Shown: piece after piece, positions 5,404-25,281 of the stretch | Layout of the letters: every line of letters begins with the position of its first letter | Position numbering within the stretch: the stretch's first letter is position 1 | Position numbers and translations under genes: made by a program | Origin: a virus | Lineage: Duplodnaviria > Heunggongvirae > Uroviricota > Caudoviricetes | Length of the DNA: 31,177 bases | Virus record (IMG/VR): IMGVR_UViG_2713896907_000007 | Location: 1 to 31,177 of that record | Direction: 5' to 3' (one strand) | Notes under the pieces: model-generated | Told to the model about the DNA's origin: nothing | Database searches by the model: none | The model's input: the letters and a program-made list of their open reading frames with translations, nothing else

Positions 5404-6594
5404 TTAATTGCTGTTAACCGAGGTAACCAGACTTGCCAGGTATCTGGAAGTAATACGCTGGCGCAGGGTCAGGTTTTCGAGAGGAGGCACCGGGGTATAG
5501 TCGTAGTCGATATACAGTTTTCCGGCCTTGAGGGTTTCCGCATCATTGGCTTCTTCACTGAACCAGCATGTGCCATCCACGATATAACCGTTGTTTTTCA
5601 GTTCGCGGAATTTGGCATTAATGCCATCAATGATGTCACGAATCAGCGTTGCGGTAATTGGCTTATCAATAGCCCACATGTGCGCCTCGGCCATCGTGTC
5701 GGCCAGTACCTGCGCGGTGCGGGTGTAGCTTTCAAAGAGGAACAGCGGGTCATCAGAGCAGGTACGGTTACCCCAGAAGCGGAAGCCGTCGCGGCGAATC
5801 AGCGTAGTGATGCCTGACTCATTAAGCAGGTCAGCATCAGTGCCGGACTTCTGCAAATCCCAGAATACAGAGGCGCTGATGCCGGTAACACCGTTCACCC
5901 CGACATTGGACAACGTTTTATGCCAGCCCTGCTCCTGGTCGATTTTGGCACGCAGCCCCAGCGCACGGGCGGTGGCATACGCGGTGGCAGTGGTACTGGT
6001 AACCGTATCCCATGCGAGGAAATCCGGCCAGATGACCATCAGCTCACGCTGGCTGAAATTCTGACGGTAGGCTTTTGCCTCGGAAATGGTTTTACAGCCC
6101 CATGCGCTGATATACCCGAATGCATTCAGTTCCTGGCATACCGATGCCAGTGCGACGGCAACCTCTTTGGTGTCCAGTCCCGGTACGCCGAGAATGCGTG
6201 GTTTAACGCCGGTAACCGACTCCGCCCCCATCAGGGCTTTCAGCCCGGTGTACTGACCGTTTTCGTCGGTGGTGCCGATAATATTGGAAACGGTCTGCGC
6301 GAGTTTCGTTTCTTCGTCGTCGCCGGTGCCGTCTTCCACGCGTACGACAACGGTGACCGGTTTTGACTGGTCAGCGATGGCCTGCAACGACGCCGCCAGC
6401 GTACCTTTTTTACCGGCCTTTGCAATTGCGCTCTGCACATTGGTAATCAGCACCGGTTTATTGAGGGGGAATGTTTCCGCATCCGCATCGCTGGCCGTGC
6501 AGACCATGCCGACAATGGCCGTGGATACGGTGGAAATGACGCGGGTGCCGTCGTTAATCTCCAGCACCTGCACGCCGTGATGATAGTCACTCAT
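5404..6594 (-). CDS. FI: Contractile tail sheath protein FI (396 aa)
   Basis: 396-aa ORF; length and synteny match P2 gpFI. Confidence 0.92.
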   Translation of the reverse strand: MSDYHHGVQVLEINDGTRVISTVSTAIVGMVCTASDADAETFPLNKPVLITNVQSAIAKAGKKGTLAASLQAIADQSKPVTVVVRVEDGTGDDEETKLAQTVSNIIGTTDENGQYTGLKALMGAESVTGVKPRILGVPGLDTKEVAVALASVCQELNAFGYISAWGCKTISEAKAYRQNFSQRELMVIWPDFLAWDTVTSTTATAYATARALGLRAKIDQEQGWHKTLSNVGVNGVTGISASVFWDLQKSGTDADLLNESGITTLIRRDGFRFWGNRTCSDDPLFLFESYTRTAQVLADTMAEAHMWAIDKPITATLIRDIIDGINAKFRELKNNGYIVDGTCWFSEEANDAETLKAGKLYIDYDYTPVPPLENLTLRQRITSRYLASLVTSVNSN

Positions 6595-6893
6595 CCGTTT
6601 AACTCCGTGGTTAATGGGTGCAACTATTTTCTGTTGTGCAGAGCATGAGACGCTATTTGACCTGACTGGTCAGTGGATGAAACAACAGATAAAGAAAAGG
6701 CGGACAATTCGCCCGCTATCCTGATTTGTACTCACTCATTTTCCAACTGACAGTTTACATAGCCCAAACGCTATCAAATCTGACAGCCTGCTTTGAGCGA
6801 ACAGCAGACATTCATTAATATGTTTGTTAGGCTAACTTTATATGATGATTACTGAAATTGACCTTAGTTTGAGAATTGCATTAGGGGAATAAA

Positions 6894-8000
6894 ATGGATG
6901 TCAATGAACTTAGAGAGTTGCTTATCAAGTATAATGACCTTCAAAATACTGATGAAGTCTATACGTTTTATTATGATGAAACGAATAACATTCGAAAACT
7001 ATATTTAAAAGATTCTGGCTTTAATGTTGTAAAGGCGGATAACTTCATCCTTGCAGGAATACTACACAAAGGGTTAAGCACTGACAGCGATTATTCAACC
7101 CTGTTTCAAAAGCTTAATCTTCAAAAAAGTGTCAATGAGTTAAAACTCAGATATATCGCTAAGGGTGGTTTTTTGGATATGCTTAAATCCGATAAGCTTT
7201 TAATTATTCTAAACTGGCTTATCGAAAACAATTTCTACATCCATTATTTTAATCTTAATATCACATACTGGTCTATTATTGACATTGTTGATTCTATTAT
7301 TGGAGAGCTACATAATCCTTTTTATATCATGAACCACATGTCACTTAAGAGCGATTTTTATGAGCTTACCAATAGCAATCCCGATGTTTTCCTGAATGCT
7401 CTACATAAATTTAACTACCCCGATATTCCAGAAGAAAAAATTTATGAGTTTTGCCTCTGGCTTATCGATTTTACATGCATGCACAGTTGTATGCTGCCAG
7501 ATTTTCGAGCACACGCACTCGAAAATTTGGTTAAAGAATCTCTAAAAATCGAAGAACTACCGTTCATATCGGGATTTCATGGTCGAAAACTGATCGATAG
7601 CTTTATGGTATTTTATTTAAGAAACTTGTATCTATTTAAAAATTCCGTTCACATATTTGATGAAGAAAAAAGCATTCAAGATGAAGTTAAAAACTTCCCG
7701 TTAACTGAAAATGGCATACCAATACAGAATCATGAATTCGTTAAATCCCACAACTCAGAGGCTATCCAACTATCTGATGTTATCGCAGGCTTTTTGGGTA
7801 AGTATTTTTCTTACTTAAAAGATGTAAATGACGAGCAATTAGCGATTGATAAGTCAGCCTTAACGAGCAAGCAATTTAAGACCCTTTCTGCGTTAAAACA
7901 CATTATTGATGTTTCTGATGATGTTAGCAGAGGATTTTTTAATGAAGTTAGCAGCGAGGGAGAGCGACGGAGAAATAATCGTTTTTTACATGGCGTATAA
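6894..8000 (+). CDS. Hypothetical 368-aa protein in AT-rich cargo island at the Z/fun position; candidate anti-phage or accessory gene
   Basis: Long ORF on the strand opposite to the flanking late genes, strongly AT-rich relative to the backbone, with SD GGGG about 6 nt before ATG. Sits exactly where P2 carries Z/fun. No Walker A, HNH or transmembrane signature seen; N-terminal YTFYYDETNN motif noted. Confidence 0.8.
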   Translation: MDVNELRELLIKYNDLQNTDEVYTFYYDETNNIRKLYLKDSGFNVVKADNFILAGILHKGLSTDSDYSTLFQKLNLQKSVNELKLRYIAKGGFLDMLKSDKLLIILNWLIENNFYIHYFNLNITYWSIIDIVDSIIGELHNPFYIMNHMSLKSDFYELTNSNPDVFLNALHKFNYPDIPEEKIYEFCLWLIDFTCMHSCMLPDFRAHALENLVKESLKIEELPFISGFHGRKLIDSFMVFYLRNLYLFKNSVHIFDEEKSIQDEVKNFPLTENGIPIQNHEFVKSHNSEAIQLSDVIAGFLGKYFSYLKDVNDEQLAIDKSALTSKQFKTLSALKHIIDVSDDVSRGFFNEVSSEGERRRNNRFLHGV

Positions 8001-8099
8001 TCGTAAGGGGTAAATTCTGCTTTTGGCACAGGGCGAACTGTCAGATTGGTTTTCACTCTGTGCCATAGATGTATAAACTCACATCAGAGCTAATACGAT

Positions 8100-8678
8100 T
8101 TATTGCGGCATTTCTGGCCATTCTATATCCGGAGTATTTTCCGACTGAACGCGATTCAGTAGCACACGGTATTTTTTCCAGTGTGTCAGGCTTAACCTTT
8201 CTTCCTCGGTAGCCATATCTAAATCGACAGCATCCTGCAGCGTGGCAATAATTTCACCTGCATATGCAATCAGCTCTTTCTTCTGAGAGTCAGCCGCTCT
8301 GACAAGCGCATCACGCTCTGCATTCTCATCATTCACCCACGCATTTCCGTTCCATTTCTGATAATCCCCATCCGGGGAAATGGCTGTCACGTCTGGAGGT
8401 AATGCGCCAAGTTCAGAAATATAAATGGCTGCTCCTGTTTTTGTTTCATAGACAGTCTTTCCACGATGGTCTTCCACCAGATCCCATTTCATTTCATCTG
8501 CATTGAAAACGGCGGCAAAACCCACCGGAATATCTGGAGGTGCAATGTCTGTACTGTTTGCTGGAAGACCTGTATGCGGCGGAATATATGCGTCACTTTC
8601 GCCAATAAATTCATTGGTTCCATCAAGTAAATTGAAAACGCGGATAGTTTGTGTCTCTGCACTCATTCTGAAAGTCAT
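8100..8678 (-). CDS. G: Tail fibre assembly chaperone G
   Basis: 192-aa ORF whose C-terminus (...[17 protein letters not shown]) resembles P2 gpG while the N-terminus diverges; ATG overlaps H stop (TAATG). Confidence 0.85.
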
Positions 8679-10495
8679 TATGCCAGCCTCACAATATAGT
8701 TATACGCAACGTTTTTTACGGTGTTCTCTGAATTACCTGTGGCACTTACAGTGACGGTATGACTATGCGCGCCAATCGCAATGGAATGGCTGTGAGCACC
8801 AATGCCAACCGTGTGATTATGCTGACCAATGTCGACTGTATGGGCGTGTGCTCCCGCAGAGCTTGACACCTGGTTGGTTCCTGATACCTGTACGCGTTGT
8901 TTACCCCCGATGGAGTCACCACCGTAACGACCACCGACAGTGTGCGTATGTGCTCCTGTATTGTTTGTCGTTTTTGTCCCGTGGTTAAACGTGCTAACCG
9001 TTTTTGTCCCGTAATCAAACGAGCTGGTCGTTTTCGTTCCCAAATCCGTACTGGATGCACTGGCACTGTGGGTATGCGATTTAATGCCATCCTGTTCCTG
9101 AGACAATACAGCGCGACCACTGGCGGGTTTGCCCTTGATTGTCCAGCCGCGCATATCTGGAATCACCCCTGACGGATAAGCTGCTGCAAGCAGGGGATAG
9201 GCTGCTTTATCAAAAGTCTGCCCCTGCATCAGGGCATAGCCTGTAGGTACTGAATCAGAAGGCCACGGGATTGGAGCGCCTACCGGAAATGAATCCTGCG
9301 GTGTCCATGGTGTCCAGCCACCCGTTGAATACTGGCTGCGGGTATAGCTTCTTGATGTGTTATAGACATAGTAAATTTGTGTTATTCCGGCATTTCTAAG
9401 CACAACCAGAGTACCTGCAAGATTCTCCGGGTATTTCAGCGATGCGCTTGTATTCGCATTCAGTGGCTGATGGTACAGTCCCGGCGTTTTGTAATTATCC
9501 AGATTCTGGTTTGCACCAATCCCAATACTCTGACCGTTAAAAATATCCTGCGATGTAATATTGACATCATTGGTCAGCGGTTTGCCATTGACCTTACGCT
9601 CACCAGGAACGCGCCCGTTTGCATTGTCATTCGCGGCTTTAACCGCTTTTGGAGTCGCGGCAAGTGTTTCAGAATCGCTGTTAGTGGCGCTGCTTAACTG
9701 AACAATCCCTTTTCGTGCCGTGGTGGCGTCCTGTGCAGTGTATTTGCCATTAGCAAGGTCATATGCTGTCTTAACCGCCTTTGGCGTTGCTGCGAGCGTC
9801 TCAGATTCGCTGTTGATGGCACTACTTAGCTGAACAAGACCTTTTCGCCCCGTGCTGGCGTCCTGTGCGGTATATTTCCCGTTAGCAAGGTCATAGGCGT
9901 CCTTTACCGCTTTCGGCGTTGCGGCCAGTGTTTCAGACGTGCTGTTGGTCGCGCTGCTTAACTGAGTAAAACCTTTTGCGGTCAGCGAGGCGTCCGGGTG
10001 ACGTCGTGACTGTTCATGCTCTGCAATCTTGTCATCAACGTAATCCTGCGTTGCCATCACCGTTGTGGTGTCAATAGTCAGCTCCACTGAGGCCACACTG
10101 CTGACGATGATGACCATGCGGCAGGTCTGCGAACGCCCTGAGCCTTCGGCAAGGGCAGGCTTATAACTTTCGGCCATGTTCGCCACGGCAATTAACGTTC
10201 CCGCATCATCGTACAGGCCAAGCTCACGCGTCCAGAAACCGCCCACCTCCGGCGGGATAACCAGCTCTGCGATAATATAATTACTGTGTCGATTGCCCTG
10301 ACTGATTTTATTCAGGGTATGTCGCCAGACCTCATTAACAAGTTTTGTCTGTCCGGCATCCGGGACAGGCAATTTACCACCACCATCCCCGACGGCCATC
10401 GTGGTAATGTTGACCTTCCGCCCTCCCGGCGCGGTTGCCGCTGCCAGCTTTGCTGCACCGGCAGTGGTGATAACGGTTTTGAATTTTGTGCTCAT
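8678..10495 (-). CDS. H: Tail fibre protein H (605 aa)
   Basis: 605-aa ORF in the H position; three tandem 39-aa repeats ([33 protein letters not shown]) and a C-terminal His-rich region with repeated HxH motifs typical of tail-fibre receptor-binding domains. Confidence 0.9.
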
Positions 10496-22168: not shown

Positions 22169-22173
22169 ACATC

Positions 22174-22195
22174 GCCGCCTGCGGGCGGCTTTTTT
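22174..22195 (+). terminator. Intrinsic terminator after Q
   Basis: GCCGCC-tgcg-GGCGGC hairpin (22174..22189) followed by TTTTTT (22190..22195), 6 nt after the Q stop. Confidence 0.7.
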
Positions 22196-22337
22196 ACACC
22201 CCGTCAGCACGCCCTCACACGCTCACCTCCGCGCAAAACACCCCGCAGACAAACCAACACCCCGGCACACAATCTAAACGCCATCACGACGCGCTCAAAC
22301 GCTGAAAAAATAAAATCAGCACCACTGCCAGCGCGCA

Positions 22338-22356
22338 GTGCTTTCCCCGCCTCGCC
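22338..22356. other. cos: cos cohesive-end site (19 nt)
   Basis: GTGCTTTCCCCGCCTCGCC is the exact reverse complement of GGCGAGGCGGGGAAAGCAC, which I recall as the P2 19-nt cohesive end; it lies about 170 bp past the Q stop in a C/A-rich tract, as in P2. Confidence 0.75.
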
Positions 22357-22512
22357 CGCCCGCTTCATGGGGCGGTTTTAATGCAGTTGCAATACCGCTT
22401 TTGAGCCACGCCAGTCTTGGCGGACGCACGGCCAGAACATGTAACTCCGGCACATGCAAAACCATGCACATATTGCATGCACAGATAAAAACGGGGATAT
22501 CACAGAAAAAGC

Positions 22513-22543
22513 ACAAAAAAAACCGGCATTCATGATGCCGGTT
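22513..22543 (-). terminator. Intrinsic terminator for leftward transcripts leaving the cargo island (possibly bidirectional)
   Basis: 9-bp stem AACCGGCAT/ATGCCGGTT (22521..22529 and 22535..22543) with 5-nt loop; on the minus strand it is followed by a run of eight T (complement of 22515..22522). Confidence 0.65.
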
Positions 22544-22681
22544 CTGATCAATTTTTATAGTTGTCACTGGCCGCGCAATGCACCAATCACACTGTTGAGG
22601 CACGTACTGACAACAATTAGCAGAAAAATCGTTGTCCACGGACTTTCATAAATGTGAGATAACTTCTTGATATAGATCATT

Positions 22682-22813
22682 TTATTTATTCATTCTGATG
22701 TGATTTAACAGGTATTTTATAACGACCATAAGCTCATCTTTACTGGCTTGTTCAACCATTTTTTCAGTGTAACTGTCCACCTCGCGAGAGCTCAGGTCGT
22801 TATTTAAGGCCAT
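22682..22813 (-). CDS. Small hypothetical protein (43 aa from the SD-preceded Met; ORF could extend to 22963)
   Basis: ORF 22682..22963 overlaps the start of the opposite-strand ORF at 22875; the internal Met at 22813 has an AGAGG SD about 9 nt upstream. Start is uncertain and the protein may not be real. Confidence 0.3.
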   Translation of the reverse strand: MALNNDLSSREVDSYTEKMVEQASKDELMVVIKYLLNHIRMNK

Positions 22814-22874
22814 TACAGTTAGCCTCTTTGCCCAGTCGGCATAAGGGTCTTTAATTGATGAAAGGGAACTATGC

Positions 22875-23312
22875 ATGTCCAAAAATCTCGAATTATTCAA
22901 CCAACAGACGGCAGAAATCTTTGCGGTGCTATGGGATAACTTTCCTGTACCACAAGTCATCACCTACAAAAAATTTAACGCCGCGTTACCTGATGACTAC
23001 TTTGACCAACTTAACTCACCAGAAATGAAAGCACTGAATCAGTTGCGTAGTGTGGTTGATGGCACATTCACTTTCCTAAGCGAAAACGGCTATATTCTGT
23101 ACGGAACAGACCATCAGACCGGTTTTCATGATGTGCGCCTGACCGAGAAAGCACTCGCGGTGCTCAACAAAAAACCCGAAGCACTTGGCGGTAATGAAAC
23201 GATGGGTGATAAAATTATCAGTGCAGTAAAAGACGGAACTCCAGGTGTAATTGCTGGAGCAGTGACAAACCTGTTGACTCTTGGCGTTAATTTTGTGACG
23301 TCAGCTTCATAG
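22875..23312 (+). CDS. Hypothetical 145-aa protein with hydrophobic Gly/Ala-rich C-terminal segment; unknown cargo gene
   Basis: ORF in the cos-A cargo island, convergent with the RT operon; C-terminus DGTPGVIAGAVTNLLTLGVNFV looks like a membrane helix. No recognisable catalytic motif. Confidence 0.5.
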   Translation: MSKNLELFNQQTAEIFAVLWDNFPVPQVITYKKFNAALPDDYFDQLNSPEMKALNQLRSVVDGTFTFLSENGYILYGTDHQTGFHDVRLTEKALAVLNKKPEALGGNETMGDKIISAVKDGTPGVIAGAVTNLLTLGVNFVTSAS

Positions 23313-23338
23313 CTAACTACTTTCTGAGGTTTCTAATC

Positions 23339-23381
23339 AACGCCGCCTGCATCGAAAGTAAATTCCTGCACTTGCGGCGTT
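23339..23381. terminator. Hairpin between convergent genes, possible bidirectional terminator
   Basis: 8-bp arms AACGCCGC (23339..23346) and GCGGCGTT (23374..23381) around a 27-nt loop, between the 145-aa ORF stop (23312) and the RT stop (23436). Weak: large loop, no clean T-run. Confidence 0.35.
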
Positions 23382-23435
23382 ACTAACGCCAAGTCATTTT
23401 AATTATTGATGCTTTTATGCAATACATTCAATATG

Positions 23436-24386
23436 TTAATTTGCAGTATTAGCCTTTAAAGTAAGCACCTTCGATTTGTAACGTTGCTCAATCACTCCCA
23501 TTGAATGCAAACGGCCAAAGAGCTTTTTGGCAATGATTGTTTCTCTCGCATTTTCGGCGTCTTTAATTATTTTCCAATAATCTATTTCCCTAGCCATCAA
23601 AAAATGCTGCTCATTCCTAACTTTTAAAGCATTACCGAATACAATAACTCCAGTTACCAACTTAGGCTTATCTCTGGCATATAATTTTGTTTTCGTTGGG
23701 TGTATAACATGTCCATGCTTATTAACGATCTTACGAATTACAGCGCAAAACAATCGATTTACGTTACTACCTGAAAAAGTGAGATCATCAACATAAACAG
23801 TCATGTTAACTCGTAACTTTTGGCAAAGTTGATATATTTCACCAAACATTCTTGAATTTGCAAAATATGCCAACGGCATACTGATGCGACTACCTGTTGG
23901 TAATCGGTCATGACAAGTACATATGTGGGACAAAACATCAGCAACATCAGATGACATTTTCATCACCGAAAAGAAAAAAGAAAATATCATCCCTCTTGTA
24001 GTTGATGGAAAAAAAGCTTTAATATCTGTTGTCATCATCTTTTCATTATTAAGATGAGCTTTAGCATTCGTCACATTAGAGCACTTCTTCTTCCCCGAGT
24101 GCAGATATTCTGGCAAAGCAATCCGTGATAACAAACTTGCAATTCGTGTATGTACAAGTTCTAGTTTTTCTAAAGGCTTTTGTATTTTTCGTGCTTTTCC
24201 TTTTTTAGAAAGTTGCTCAAAAACGGAATAGTTTCCTTCATCTTTTCTCAAAGAGTATAATTCTTCAAGACTAACACAAAGCAAATTCGCCAGTTTTCTT
24301 TTACTTTTGAGTTTGTAAAATGGCGAATCCATTATGTCATAAGATTTATTTTTAGTATTAACCTTAAGCTTTTTCCGTTTTTTCAT
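23436..24386 (-). CDS. Reverse transcriptase, retron-type (316 aa)
   Basis: Motifs seen in translation: NAKAH (NAxxH, aa 107-111), TDIKAFFPS (motif A Asp), LPTGSRISMPLA (motif B region), YVDD (motif C, aa 198-201, DNA 23784..23795) and KLVTGVIV (VTG, aa 244-246). Size and motif order resemble retron RTs such as Ec86 as I recall them. AT-rich. Confidence 0.85.
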   Translation of the reverse strand: MKKRKKLKVNTKNKSYDIMDSPFYKLKSKRKLANLLCVSLEELYSLRKDEGNYSVFEQLSKKGKARKIQKPLEKLELVHTRIASLLSRIALPEYLHSGKKKCSNVTNAKAHLNNEKMMTTDIKAFFPSTTRGMIFSFFFSVMKMSSDVADVLSHICTCHDRLPTGSRISMPLAYFANSRMFGEIYQLCQKLRVNMTVYVDDLTFSGSNVNRLFCAVIRKIVNKHGHVIHPTKTKLYARDKPKLVTGVIVFGNALKVRNEQHFLMAREIDYWKIIKDAENARETIIAKKLFGRLHSMGVIEQRYKSKVLTLKANTAN

Positions 24387-24684
24387 TTTTATTACTTACC
24401 CACTCCAGAACATCCAGAACTTTACCGGCTAAATTTAAACGCAATCGCTTAGACAAACGGCCTTGCGTGCCTAATGATTCCGAAAAGAATACTAAAGAGG
24501 ATACTGGTATGTCGAAATGGGAGGCGTAACGCTCTAAGACTTCAATCGACGGTGACCAAACTCCGCTTTCAAGCGATACTATTTTGTCTTTTGGAATACC
24601 TAAAGATGAAGATAACTCAACTATTGATTCTTTATGGTATTGCCTTATTAAACGAAGGGCTTTATGTAACATAGGCAACTCCAT
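24364..24684 (-). CDS. XRE-family helix-turn-helix protein (106 aa), co-operonic with the RT
   Basis: LRLIRQYHKESIVELSSSLGIPKDKIVSLESG fits a Cro/C1-type HTH; its 3' end overlaps the RT start by 23 nt, implying translational coupling. Confidence 0.75.
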   Translation of the reverse strand: MELPMLHKALRLIRQYHKESIVELSSSLGIPKDKIVSLESGVWSPSIEVLERYASHFDIPVSSLVFFSESLGTQGRLSKRLRLNLAGKVLDVLEWVSNKNEKTEKA

Positions 24685-24708
24685 GCTATTGAAACTAGGG
24701 AGGACGCA

Positions 24709-24864
24709 TTACTCACCACCCCCTTCTAAGTAGTCCAGTGCTCGAGTGACTAAATCAAACAGTCTAATACCCCATTTGAATAATTCCCAAGCATAACCAG
24801 CCCTCTTTTTCAGGTTTGACTTGTTCTGCGCCTGCTGTTCGTTGGTTAATTTATCATTCTTCAT
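24709..24864 (-). CDS. Small hypothetical protein (51 aa) at the head of the HTH-RT operon
   Basis: ATG at 24864 is preceded by a strong SD AAGGAG with a 6-nt spacer; it ends 24 nt before the HTH start. The longer ORF 24709..25122 upstream of this Met runs through hairpin-rich DNA and is probably not coding. Confidence 0.45.
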   Translation of the reverse strand: MKNDKLTNEQQAQNKSNLKKRAGYAWELFKWGIRLFDLVTRALDYLEGGGE

Positions 24865-25100
24865 GATTTGCTCCTTATGCCCATAGTGTGCAAACGGTAT
24901 GTCTGCTCCAACACTATGGTTCGCCCTCATAAGGATGAGATTGAACAGCACTAGCTCCCTGCTCCACGAACCCTTTGTCGCCCAAAGGGTTCGAATTCCC
25001 ATACGCCATACCACCTGGTCCTGTGACTCTTGTCGCTGGCAGGGGCGTTGCGCGGGGTAAACGGTAGAAAGTGTTAACTTTCCACGGGTAAAAAATACCC
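24865..25100 (-). ncRNA. Candidate structured non-coding RNA (possible retron msr/msd) upstream of the RT operon
   Basis: Non-coding stretch with several hairpins: 9-bp stem 24881..24889/24911..24919; 11-bp stem CGAACCCTTTG/CAAAGGGTTCG 24967..24993 with 5-nt loop; 6-bp stem 25067..25082; 5-bp stem 25086..25100. A retron RT needs an adjacent msr/msd RNA. Boundaries and a1/a2 repeats not identified. Confidence 0.25.
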
Positions 25101-25281
25101 AATTGATGGCGATGTATCTCACTAACTAACCAATAATTGCATCATAACAAGTAAACCGTTGTATTTGATCTTTCTATATATAATATTTTTTCATATAAAA
25201 CCAAACATTAACAACAAAGAAGAATAACACATATTAAAGCGATATACGATATACGTTCATTACATTGAATTTTAAAGTGTT
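25101..25281 (-). promoter_or_regulatory. AT-rich intergenic region between A and the RT cassette, presumed cassette promoter
   Basis: About 180 bp of very AT-rich DNA containing a tandem GATATAC GATATAC near 25241..25254; only weak -35/-10 candidates on the minus strand (TTGTTA at 25150..25145). Confidence 0.3.

Follow-up and report, generated by a model that had tools for sequence, protein, structure and literature searches.

In the 31,177 nucleotides (nt) of viral DNA analysed here (IMG/VR record IMGVR_UViG_2713896907_000007, positions 1 to 31,177; hereafter the window), an open reading frame (ORF) of 368 amino acids (aa) at 6894..8000 was identified as a DUF3800 gene of the PADLOC family PDC-S51, carried as foreign single-gene cargo between the tail genes FI and G of a P2-like prophage. 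The encoded protein is predicted to have an RNase H-like core with a set of invariant acidic residues. As its function we propose, with fair though far from complete confidence, that of a single-gene, metal-dependent defence nuclease that would protect the lysogen from other phages. The family, the hotspot and the DUF3800 label in RefSeq were already known: the Escherichia coli copy is listed there as DUF3800 domain-containing protein, and the gene is already present as orf20 of a published phage genome. Hence the gene is a further member of the PDC-S51 candidate kind.

A DUF3800 protein with a predicted RNase H-like core

Profile searches place the protein in its family. PDC-S51 of PADLOC matched over the full length (E = 4.5e-106, 352.9 bits, residues 2-366 against positions 4-370 of the 376-position profile), as did PHROG 15126, the function of which is unknown. 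The Pfam family DUF3800 (PF12686) was found with 32.4 bits against a gathering cut-off of 21 (E = 1.8e-07, residues 25-302 against profile positions 2-147 of 149). Validated systems were not matched, PADLOC returning PDC-S51 alone and the NCBIfam search of the protein giving no match. A Pfam match to DUF1831 was set aside, its 17.3 bits lying under the cut-off of 25.

The hallmarks reported for DUF3800 proteins are an N-terminal DE motif and a C-terminal QxxD motif (PMC7736814). Both are present here, the first as D28-E29 and the second as Q292-L-S-D295. Residue conservation was determined in an alignment of 43 homologues reaching down to 35% identity, in which D28-E29, N31, N32, R34, D130, H253, D256, E258, Q292, D295 and K303 are invariant. 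D28-E29 falls within the stretch YTFYYDETNN, from which the initial annotation had guessed at a relationship to DUF3800; the Pfam score and the invariant DE and QxxD motifs bear this guess out. The motifs are encoded as follows:

6975..6980, plus strand: codons of D28-E29, the N-terminal DE motif, invariant in all 43 sequences; strand beta1, which covers residues 23-29 of the model, ends with it
7281..7283, plus strand: codon of D130, invariant, in the helix after strand beta4 according to the model
7650..7667, plus strand: codons of H253-I-F-D256-E-E258, the HxFDxE motif on strand beta5, with H253, D256 and E258 invariant
7767..7778, plus strand: codons of Q292-L-S-D295, the C-terminal QxxD motif, with Q292 and D295 invariant

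The FDE motif was also aligned in a short DUF3800 paralogue, the alignment of which with the protein is weak (hhalign probability 9%).

An AlphaFold2 model calculated from the homologue alignment (pLDDT 94.1, pTM 0.92) shows an RNase H-like fold, the fold described for DUF3800 as RNase H or RNase H2-like (PMC7736814; PMC10910872; PMC12669027). According to the model, the core of the protein is RNase H-like, of the type-2 RNase H kind, and contains the invariant D28-E29, D130, H253/D256/E258 and Q292/D295. A more variable helical insertion is predicted at about residues 141-229, and a C-terminal helical region is also present in the model. Conservation is highest on the core strands and lowest in the helical insertion, with majority fractions of 0.80 for residues 21-40, 0.70 for residues 241-260 and 0.42-0.48 for residues 161-220. 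Since the 149 positions of the Pfam profile are distributed over 278 residues, the DUF3800 match spans long inserts including this helical region. The statement in the initial annotation that the protein lacks a nuclease signature is thus contradicted by the predicted fold and the invariant acidic residues. Its observation that a transmembrane signature is missing was correct: the maximum of the Kyte-Doolittle plot is 1.23 (19-residue window), and the protein is soluble and acidic (43 kDa, isoelectric point 5.4).

A solved structure of a relative was sought by sequence and by Foldseek, and neither gave a match in the PDB: the profile search of PDB sequences returned 0 matches at E <= 10, and Foldseek with the model returned nothing significant. 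The Foldseek search of BFVD gave a single match, which is another DUF3800 protein. RNase H families of Pfam were not matched at E <= 1.

The database search yielded 655 homologues. A profile search of 1.84 billion representative proteins yielded 1124 clusters (50% identity) at E <= 1e-3, of which 543 remain at E <= 1e-30. Nearly all of the 1124 clusters are 350-390 aa long and align over the full length; the family is medium-sized and has one uniform architecture.

The gene is foreign cargo in the second hotspot of P2-like phages

The slot between FI and G is the second defence-enriched locus of P2-like phages and contains validated defensive cargo (PMC9519451); it is also treated as a hotspot in PMC13586616. 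P2 itself has two plus-strand ORFs in this slot. In the window the slot likewise contains variable DNA that is transcribed opposite to the late operons, and the 368-aa ORF starts with ATG on the plus strand between the minus-strand genes FI and G. The proposal that a single-gene cargo cassette occupies the Z/fun position therefore agrees with what is known of the site. The following features were located:

5404..6594, minus strand: FI, tail sheath gene (Pfam Phage_sheath_1, Phage_sheath_1C and Gp18_domIII_N)
6595..6812, minus strand: conserved P2 backbone upstream of FI, not cargo, GC 0.445 (94-95% identity to P2)
6795..6838, plus strand: 44-nt leader straddling the junction of backbone and cargo, 93% identical to DNA upstream of the Vibrio fluvialis PD-T7-1 homologue
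6813..8015, plus strand: foreign cargo cassette of 1203 bp, GC 0.333, at P2 hotspot 2 (Z/fun position), delimited by the edges of blastn matches to P2 and by the GC z-score
6839..6855, plus strand: 3'-end remnant of a deleted PD-T7-1-like gene, ending ...LYDDY with the stop codon at 6853-6855 (alignment with the Vibrio locus L004 and the Ketobacter locus L011)
6883..6888, plus strand: Shine-Dalgarno sequence AGGGGA, 5 nt before the ATG, read off the sequence
6894..8000, plus strand: DUF3800 / PADLOC PDC-S51 ORF, predicted RNase H-like nuclease, 368 aa plus stop
8016..8099, no strand assigned: conserved backbone between the convergent DUF3800 gene and G (85% identity to P2)
8100..8678, minus strand: G, tail-fibre assembly gene (Pfam Caudo_TAP, 6.4e-39)

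The composition of the gene differs clearly from that of its surroundings. GC falls from about 0.55-0.57 to 0.32-0.35 over the ORF, which has a GC of 0.336 against 0.53 for the window outside it, and GC at third codon positions is 0.334 against 0.655 for FI. For the cargo as a whole a GC z-score of -3.2 was obtained (other segments of 1203 nt: mean 0.528, standard deviation 0.060). The AT-rich ORF opposite the tail genes, with a Shine-Dalgarno sequence of its own, was thus correctly described at the outset, and this Shine-Dalgarno sequence is kept as AAGGGGAAT in the Vibrio and Ketobacter copies. At the base composition of the ORF, about 7% of codons would be stops, and a frame of 368 codons would stay open by chance with a probability of about 1e-12. 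Comparison with five homologues gave ratios of nonsynonymous to synonymous substitutions (dN/dS) of 0.11-0.26, showing that the gene is under purifying selection. From both values together a chance ORF can be excluded.

In blastn comparisons, homology to P2 (94-95%) stops at 6812 and restarts at 8016 (85%), and no P2 nucleotide homology was found within 6813..8015; the cargo was therefore delimited to these positions. The island had originally been drawn as 6595-8099, which is too wide, the remainder being conserved P2 backbone. The AT-rich upstream region that had been ascribed to the gene has to be shortened in the same way: most of it (6595-6812) is backbone that lies upstream of FI on the minus strand, and only the part from 6813 onwards belongs to the plus-strand cargo. 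The phage fiAA91-ss is collinear with the window at 95.8% identity across the cargo and through 8123. Its homology ends 24 nt into gene G, which encodes 192 aa here and 175 aa there (L001 4203-4730). This stop, together with the length difference, shows that one cargo has been joined to differing tail-fibre modules, with a recombination junction adjoining the hotspot.

Two hairpins were found in the backbone on either side of the cargo. A terminator scan revealed a terminator-like minus-strand hairpin plus T-run at 6716..6700, upstream of FI. The second, a stable hairpin at 8024-8065 (GGCACAGGG...CUCUGUGCC; folding z-scores -3.4 on the plus and -3.55 on the minus strand), is located in the spacer between the DUF3800 gene and G and is not followed by a U-tract on either strand; its role could be that of a terminator or of an element affecting RNA stability. 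Inside G, a sub-threshold Rfam match to the E. coli small RNA (sRNA) candidate IS009 (8137-8335, minus strand, 53.7 bits against a gathering score of 117) probably reflects homology among tfa genes and not an RNA gene.

The cassette carries the remnant of a PD-T7-1-like gene

In Vibrio (L004) and Ketobacter (L011), the DUF3800 gene is found in tandem with an intact PD-T7-1 homologue of 461 aa (L004 8578-9963, L011 6577-7962). Traces of such an arrangement are visible in the window. The last 17 nt of the Vibrio PD-T7-1 homologue, which ends ...YLYDDC, are matched from 6839 onwards, and the spacer of 38 nt from the remnant stop to the ATG of the DUF3800 gene is the same in Vibrio and Ketobacter. 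The counterpart of the 44-nt leader is found at 8472-8515 of the Vibrio locus, upstream of the intact PD-T7-1 homologue, and this leader may carry a promoter. A 23-nt core of the leader is present in only 4 IMG/VR contigs, all of them P2-like and with the same cassette. The simplest reading of these alignments is that a tandem of PD-T7-1 and DUF3800 would have lost PD-T7-1 by a deletion between the similar short sequences GGCTAAC and GGTTATC, leaving the leader fused to the DUF3800 gene. The leader consists partly of P2 backbone, which suggests that the Vibrio island contains DNA once located in a P2-type hotspot.

In the Thiodiazotropha locus L010 it is the PD-T7-1-like gene that is split, into two ORFs, next to an intact DUF3800 gene. 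Among the loci of distant homologues, PD-T7-1-like genes vary in position and orientation, which points to defence genes travelling together and being co-located in islands rather than to an obligate pair or an operon.

The cassette is rare and mobile

The cassette was detected in 6 of 5426 complete E. coli genomes (96.5-96.8% identity), and in the one copy inspected it is located between the sheath gene and the tail-fibre assembly gene. It is also present in four P2-like IMG/VR contigs. A search of 50,697 phage records found it in two records of fiAA91-ss; the only other match was a faecal contig with 33% identity. Outside phages, the DNA of the cassette is 90% identical to an island of Pectobacterium parmentieri and 86% identical to an island of Vibrio fluvialis, and a protein with 86% identity is encoded on a conjugative IncF plasmid of Klebsiella. 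Homologues were found on 148 plasmids, 65 of them conjugative. In every host the gene has a GC of 31-35%, and the DNA travelling with it comprises at most 55 nt upstream and about 30 nt downstream. A compact, autonomous cassette of about 1.2 kb thus moves among P2-like phages, plasmids and genomic islands in Escherichia, Pectobacterium, Vibrio and Klebsiella.

The Pectobacterium parmentieri island (L003; CP065946, 3159925-3181037) also contains Shedu, an Imm63 protein, a GNAT acetyltransferase and a short DUF3800 protein of 244 aa. At one end it has a 539-aa ORF followed by two Phage_integrase genes, and a 200-aa integrase gene is located just 3' of the cassette. A stretch of 68 nt in this island (8885-8952) resembles the P2 backbone at 6745-6812 with 76% identity.

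Neighbours are mostly defence and mobile-element genes

Genes were called in 80 further loci and five neighbours on each side were clustered. A conserved partner gene was not found among these loci, the largest neighbour family being present in 9 of them; a conserved partner protein is thereby ruled out within this range, and the gene behaves as a single gene without obligatory partner, as is the case for PDC-S51. The neighbours that could be identified are mostly defence and mobile-element genes, often Shedu, Gabija, Lamassu, AbiE and PD-T7-1. Shedu SduA (2e-225) is an immediate neighbour of the homologue in Pectobacterium, in the island with three tandem integrases; in Vibrio the PD-T7-1 homologue (7e-73) is located 38 nt upstream of the DUF3800 gene. 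The neighbours in Alteromonas are DUF4365 and GmrSD_C proteins, and those on the Klebsiella plasmid are an AIPR protein, an ATPase and HNH pair and a TPR protein. In a census covering 141 proteins encoded directly beside the homologues, PD-T7-1 was counted 5 times, mad3 4 times, LmuB 3 times, GajA/GajB 2-3 times and AbiEii, IetS, DRT, DUF4238 and DUF4145 twice each; ArdC, ParB_N, resolvases, integrases and genes for type IV secretion were recorded as well. Components of BREX, DISARM and type I restriction-modification (RM) are absent from the best 25 families of the census, and the copy in the window is located in a prophage hotspot outside any such locus.

In three loci of the Roseobacter group (L062, L073 and L075) a different DUF3800 paralogue (366-406 aa, about 25 bits, no PADLOC match) is encoded directly 3' of the PDC-S51 homologue, which may represent a two-paralogue arrangement.

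RNA motifs and the retron of the same prophage

Other DUF3800 genes have been linked to eleven structured RNA motifs (PMC5737381), and in retron type VII a DUF3800 protein serves as the effector (PMC7736814). The search with the Rfam motifs DUF3800-I to -XI, drum and skipping-rope gave no match in 6300-8400 at E <= 1, and none in 10 homologue loci at the gathering score, where only a transfer-messenger RNA beside one island was detected. The 5' leader has no significant structure (folding z-score 0.25). The association with RNA motifs reported for other DUF3800 genes was thus not found here, and a hidden RNA partner was rejected on the basis of the Rfam results, the leader and the short flanks that are transferred with the gene.

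The prophage also encodes a retron, located about 15 kb (distance to the reverse transcriptase, RT) from the DUF3800 gene:

22169-25281: retron of type VI occupying hotspot 1 (GC about 0.39), which separates portal gene Q from replication gene A, with the RT at 23436..24386 (minus strand) and a helix-turn-helix (HTH) gene at 24364..24684 (minus strand)

It was assigned with PADLOC RT_VI (1.4e-105) and HTH_VI (7.7e-31); an msr family of Rfam was not detected at this retron, and among the matches listed for the retron cassette there is none to fiAA91-ss. A functional link between the DUF3800 gene and this retron, the multicopy single-stranded DNA (msDNA) of which is an RNA:DNA hybrid, was considered and rejected, since the retron cassette is present in 29 complete E. 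coli genomes and the DUF3800 cassette in 6, with an overlap of 0. The architecture of retron type VII, with an adjacent or fused RT and msr-msd, was not found either, no RT being located beside the gene. A weak Rfam match in hotspot 1 to the enterobacterial sRNA STnc240 (22511-22591, minus strand, 27.2 bits against a gathering score of 55, E = 0.41) is probably due to chance.

Proposed function and alternative explanations

We consider it fairly probable that the gene encodes a single-gene, metal-dependent defence nuclease acting on behalf of the lysogen. Like fun in P2, the gene is oriented away from the late tail operons; the resident prophage would for this reason probably express it in the lysogen. 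The protein would probably be a divalent-metal-dependent endonuclease, and its substrate a nucleic-acid structure of the superinfecting phage. An RNA:DNA hybrid or a junction such as a primer or an R-loop seems most plausible because type-2 RNase H is the nearest fold, which is the weakest step of the proposal; phage DNA or cellular RNA would be the other candidates. The competing phage could be stopped directly or by abortive infection, and the variable helical insertion might act as gate or sensor. P2 replicates by a rolling-circle mechanism that begins with a nick by the A protein, so that it would be less exposed to such an enzyme. A more far-reaching claim, that standalone DUF3800 is a genuine single-gene anti-phage system in which the RNase H-like core cuts RNA:DNA hybrids or junctions of invading phages, appears rather unlikely to us as a whole.

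Several points weigh against a defence nuclease. D28, E29, D130 and D256/D295 are candidate catalytic carboxylates that were selected by invariance and not by spatial geometry, and a "catalytic rearrangement" has been described in DUF3800 (PMC10910872). No convincing sigma-70 promoter preceded the ORF in a consensus scan; by eye, TTGAGC (6793-6798) and TAATAT (6816-6821), with a spacer of 17 nt, agree with only 8 of 12 consensus positions. The cassette is rare in E. coli, and since this copy lost an upstream PD-T7-1-like gene, the ancestral working context may have been a pair. The PDC candidates were picked for their embedding within BREX, DISARM or type I RM loci, and are described as untested both by their own authors (bioRxiv 10.1101/2024.01.29.577857) and by others. 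Our literature search found no anti-phage test of PDC-S51, of a standalone DUF3800 protein, of WP_000382497 or of AGX84582. Finally, ArdC (ArdcN plus MPTase-PolyVal), an anti-restriction protein, is encoded at most three genes from the homologue in nine loci, and a large ParB_N protein flanks the homologue in three (L017, L065 and L072), a context that fits an anti-defence or establishment role. The ArdC loci (L030, L033, L034, L035, L046, L056, L063, L065 and L072; 34-38% identity) are mostly from Alphaproteobacteria, and the ArdC and ParB_N loci resemble the leading region of conjugative elements.

Such a role would be that of an RNase H-like nuclease made on entry of the element, which destroys immune nucleic acids of the host (retron msDNA, DRT cDNA or guide RNAs). 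Besides the ArdC and ParB_N genes, the many plasmids with homologues, 65 of 148 conjugative, speak for it, as does the fact that RNA:DNA hybrids are working parts of retrons and that other DUF3800 proteins are retron-linked (PMC7736814). We nevertheless regard it as unlikely: the copy of the P2-like phage is located not among early genes but in a hotspot that is expressed in the lysogen and has validated defensive cargo (PMC9519451), most identifiable neighbours are defence systems, and the PADLOC family was defined from genes embedded in BREX, DISARM and RM loci. In addition, the same prophage carries its own type VI retron, which would be odd for an anti-retron enzyme. The remnant at 6839-6855, in which the final codons and stop of a PD-T7-1-like gene survive directly upstream of the DUF3800 gene, raises another possibility, namely that the gene is the orphan half of a PD-T7-1-like plus DUF3800 module, alone inactive or modulating a lost partner. 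The tandem with identical 38-nt spacing is intact in Vibrio and Ketobacter, and PD-T7-1-like genes are the commonest PADLOC family among the immediate neighbours (5 of 141). Yet PD-T7-1 works as a single gene (PMC9519451), its relatives vary in position and orientation in distant homologues and are missing from most of the about 80 loci, and the split gene in Thiodiazotropha stands beside an intact DUF3800 gene. The solo gene, moreover, has stayed intact under purifying selection in P2-like phages, Pectobacterium, Providencia and a Klebsiella plasmid, so that we give this explanation little credence.

Equally little speaks, in our judgement, for a function outside immunity, either as a selfish or addiction nuclease or as a fitness factor of the lysogen that clears R-loops or ribonucleotides like a spare RNase H. 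The predicted RNase H-like fold, the many kinds of mobile element bearing the gene and the lack of a known phenotype would be compatible with this; the about 80 loci, however, show neither an adjacent small antitoxin-like gene nor a conserved partner, and the sequence is far from housekeeping RNase HI and HII (no Pfam match). A patchy and rare gene (6 of 5426 E. coli genomes) that is AT-rich in all hosts follows the pattern of accessory conflict genes and not of housekeeping genes, and the tested cargo of this hotspot is defensive (PMC9519451). Least probable is that the protein depends on a non-coding RNA partner of its own (like DUF3800-I to -XI, drum, skipping-rope or a retron msr-msd) that was missed here. 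It is suggested by the eleven RNA motifs beside DUF3800 genes (PMC5737381) and by the effector of retron type VII (PMC7736814), but contradicted by the Rfam results in 6300-8400 and in the 10 homologue loci, by the short co-travelling DNA and the unstructured leader, by the flanks of less than 100 nt in many homologues, and by the retron and the cassette never coinciding in the 29 and 6 E. coli genomes.

DUF3800 turns up repeatedly in bacterial conflict systems, namely in retron type VII, among the accessory genes of Cas12a2/Cas12a3 and type VI-F loci and beside eleven orphan RNA motifs, and in the literature searched no demonstrated activity of a DUF3800 protein was found. If the cutting of hybrids or junctions proved true, it would be the first biochemical function for the fold of the retron type VII effector, the Cas12a2/Cas12a3/VI-F accessory nuclease and the neighbour of eleven orphan RNAs. 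The copy described here offers the simplest setting for a test: a lone 1.1-kb gene, placed in a P2 prophage hotspot of E. coli type whose other cargo has repeatedly turned out to be defensive, with clear candidate catalytic residues and the PD-T7-1 tandem as a natural comparison. If such a test were positive, one of the 145 PADLOC candidates would become a validated system and the fold as a whole would become easier to approach; a negative outcome would shorten the list. Independently of this, the junction analysis provides a clean example of hotspot cargo that was trimmed and passed among phages, plasmids and islands.

Comparison with known systems

With P2 Fun(Z) and the validated systems of hotspot 2 (PMC9519451), the cassette shares the slot, the orientation opposite to the late operons and the AT-rich foreign character. 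The DUF3800 protein itself has no sequence similarity to the P2 ORFs at the locus: comparison with the 233-aa P2 ORF gave E = 0.84 in BLASTP and a probability of 0.4% in hhalign, which rules out homology to P2 Fun. The link to T5 resistance that was implied in the initial annotation therefore falls, since exclusion of T5 cannot be transferred by homology to an unrelated protein. PD-T7-1, a validated single-gene system (PMC9519451), is encoded in tandem upstream in the closest non-phage relatives and has left its 3' end in the window; it is a different protein without a Pfam domain and is missing from this prophage. The effectors of retron type VII and the TPR-DUF3800 accessory proteins of Cas12a2/Cas12a3 and of type VI-F differ in their setting, as the gene has no adjacent RT, CRISPR-Cas, TPR domain or RNA motif here.

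Type 2 RNases H have four carboxylates (DEDD) around two metal ions and cut RNA in RNA:DNA hybrids. Compared to RNase HII, RNase HIII and eukaryotic RNase H2A, the identity of the DUF3800 protein is only 6-11%, a sequence-profile match was not obtained (neither to RNase HII nor to RNase HIII), and the protein has the additional invariant residues H253, D256, E258 and Q292 as well as large insertions. With the members of Pfam DUF3800 it has the score above threshold, the DE and QxxD motifs and the predicted RNase H-like fold in common; it departs from them in the stretching of the profile and in the C-terminal helical region that follows. The PADLOC family of the protein is PDC-S51, a single-gene candidate identified by guilt-by-embedding. 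Such PDC candidates were picked from BREX, DISARM and type I RM loci, whereas the present copy is located in a P2 prophage hotspot; in the full-length match to the hidden Markov model, the single-gene architecture and the defence-rich neighbourhoods, the two are alike.

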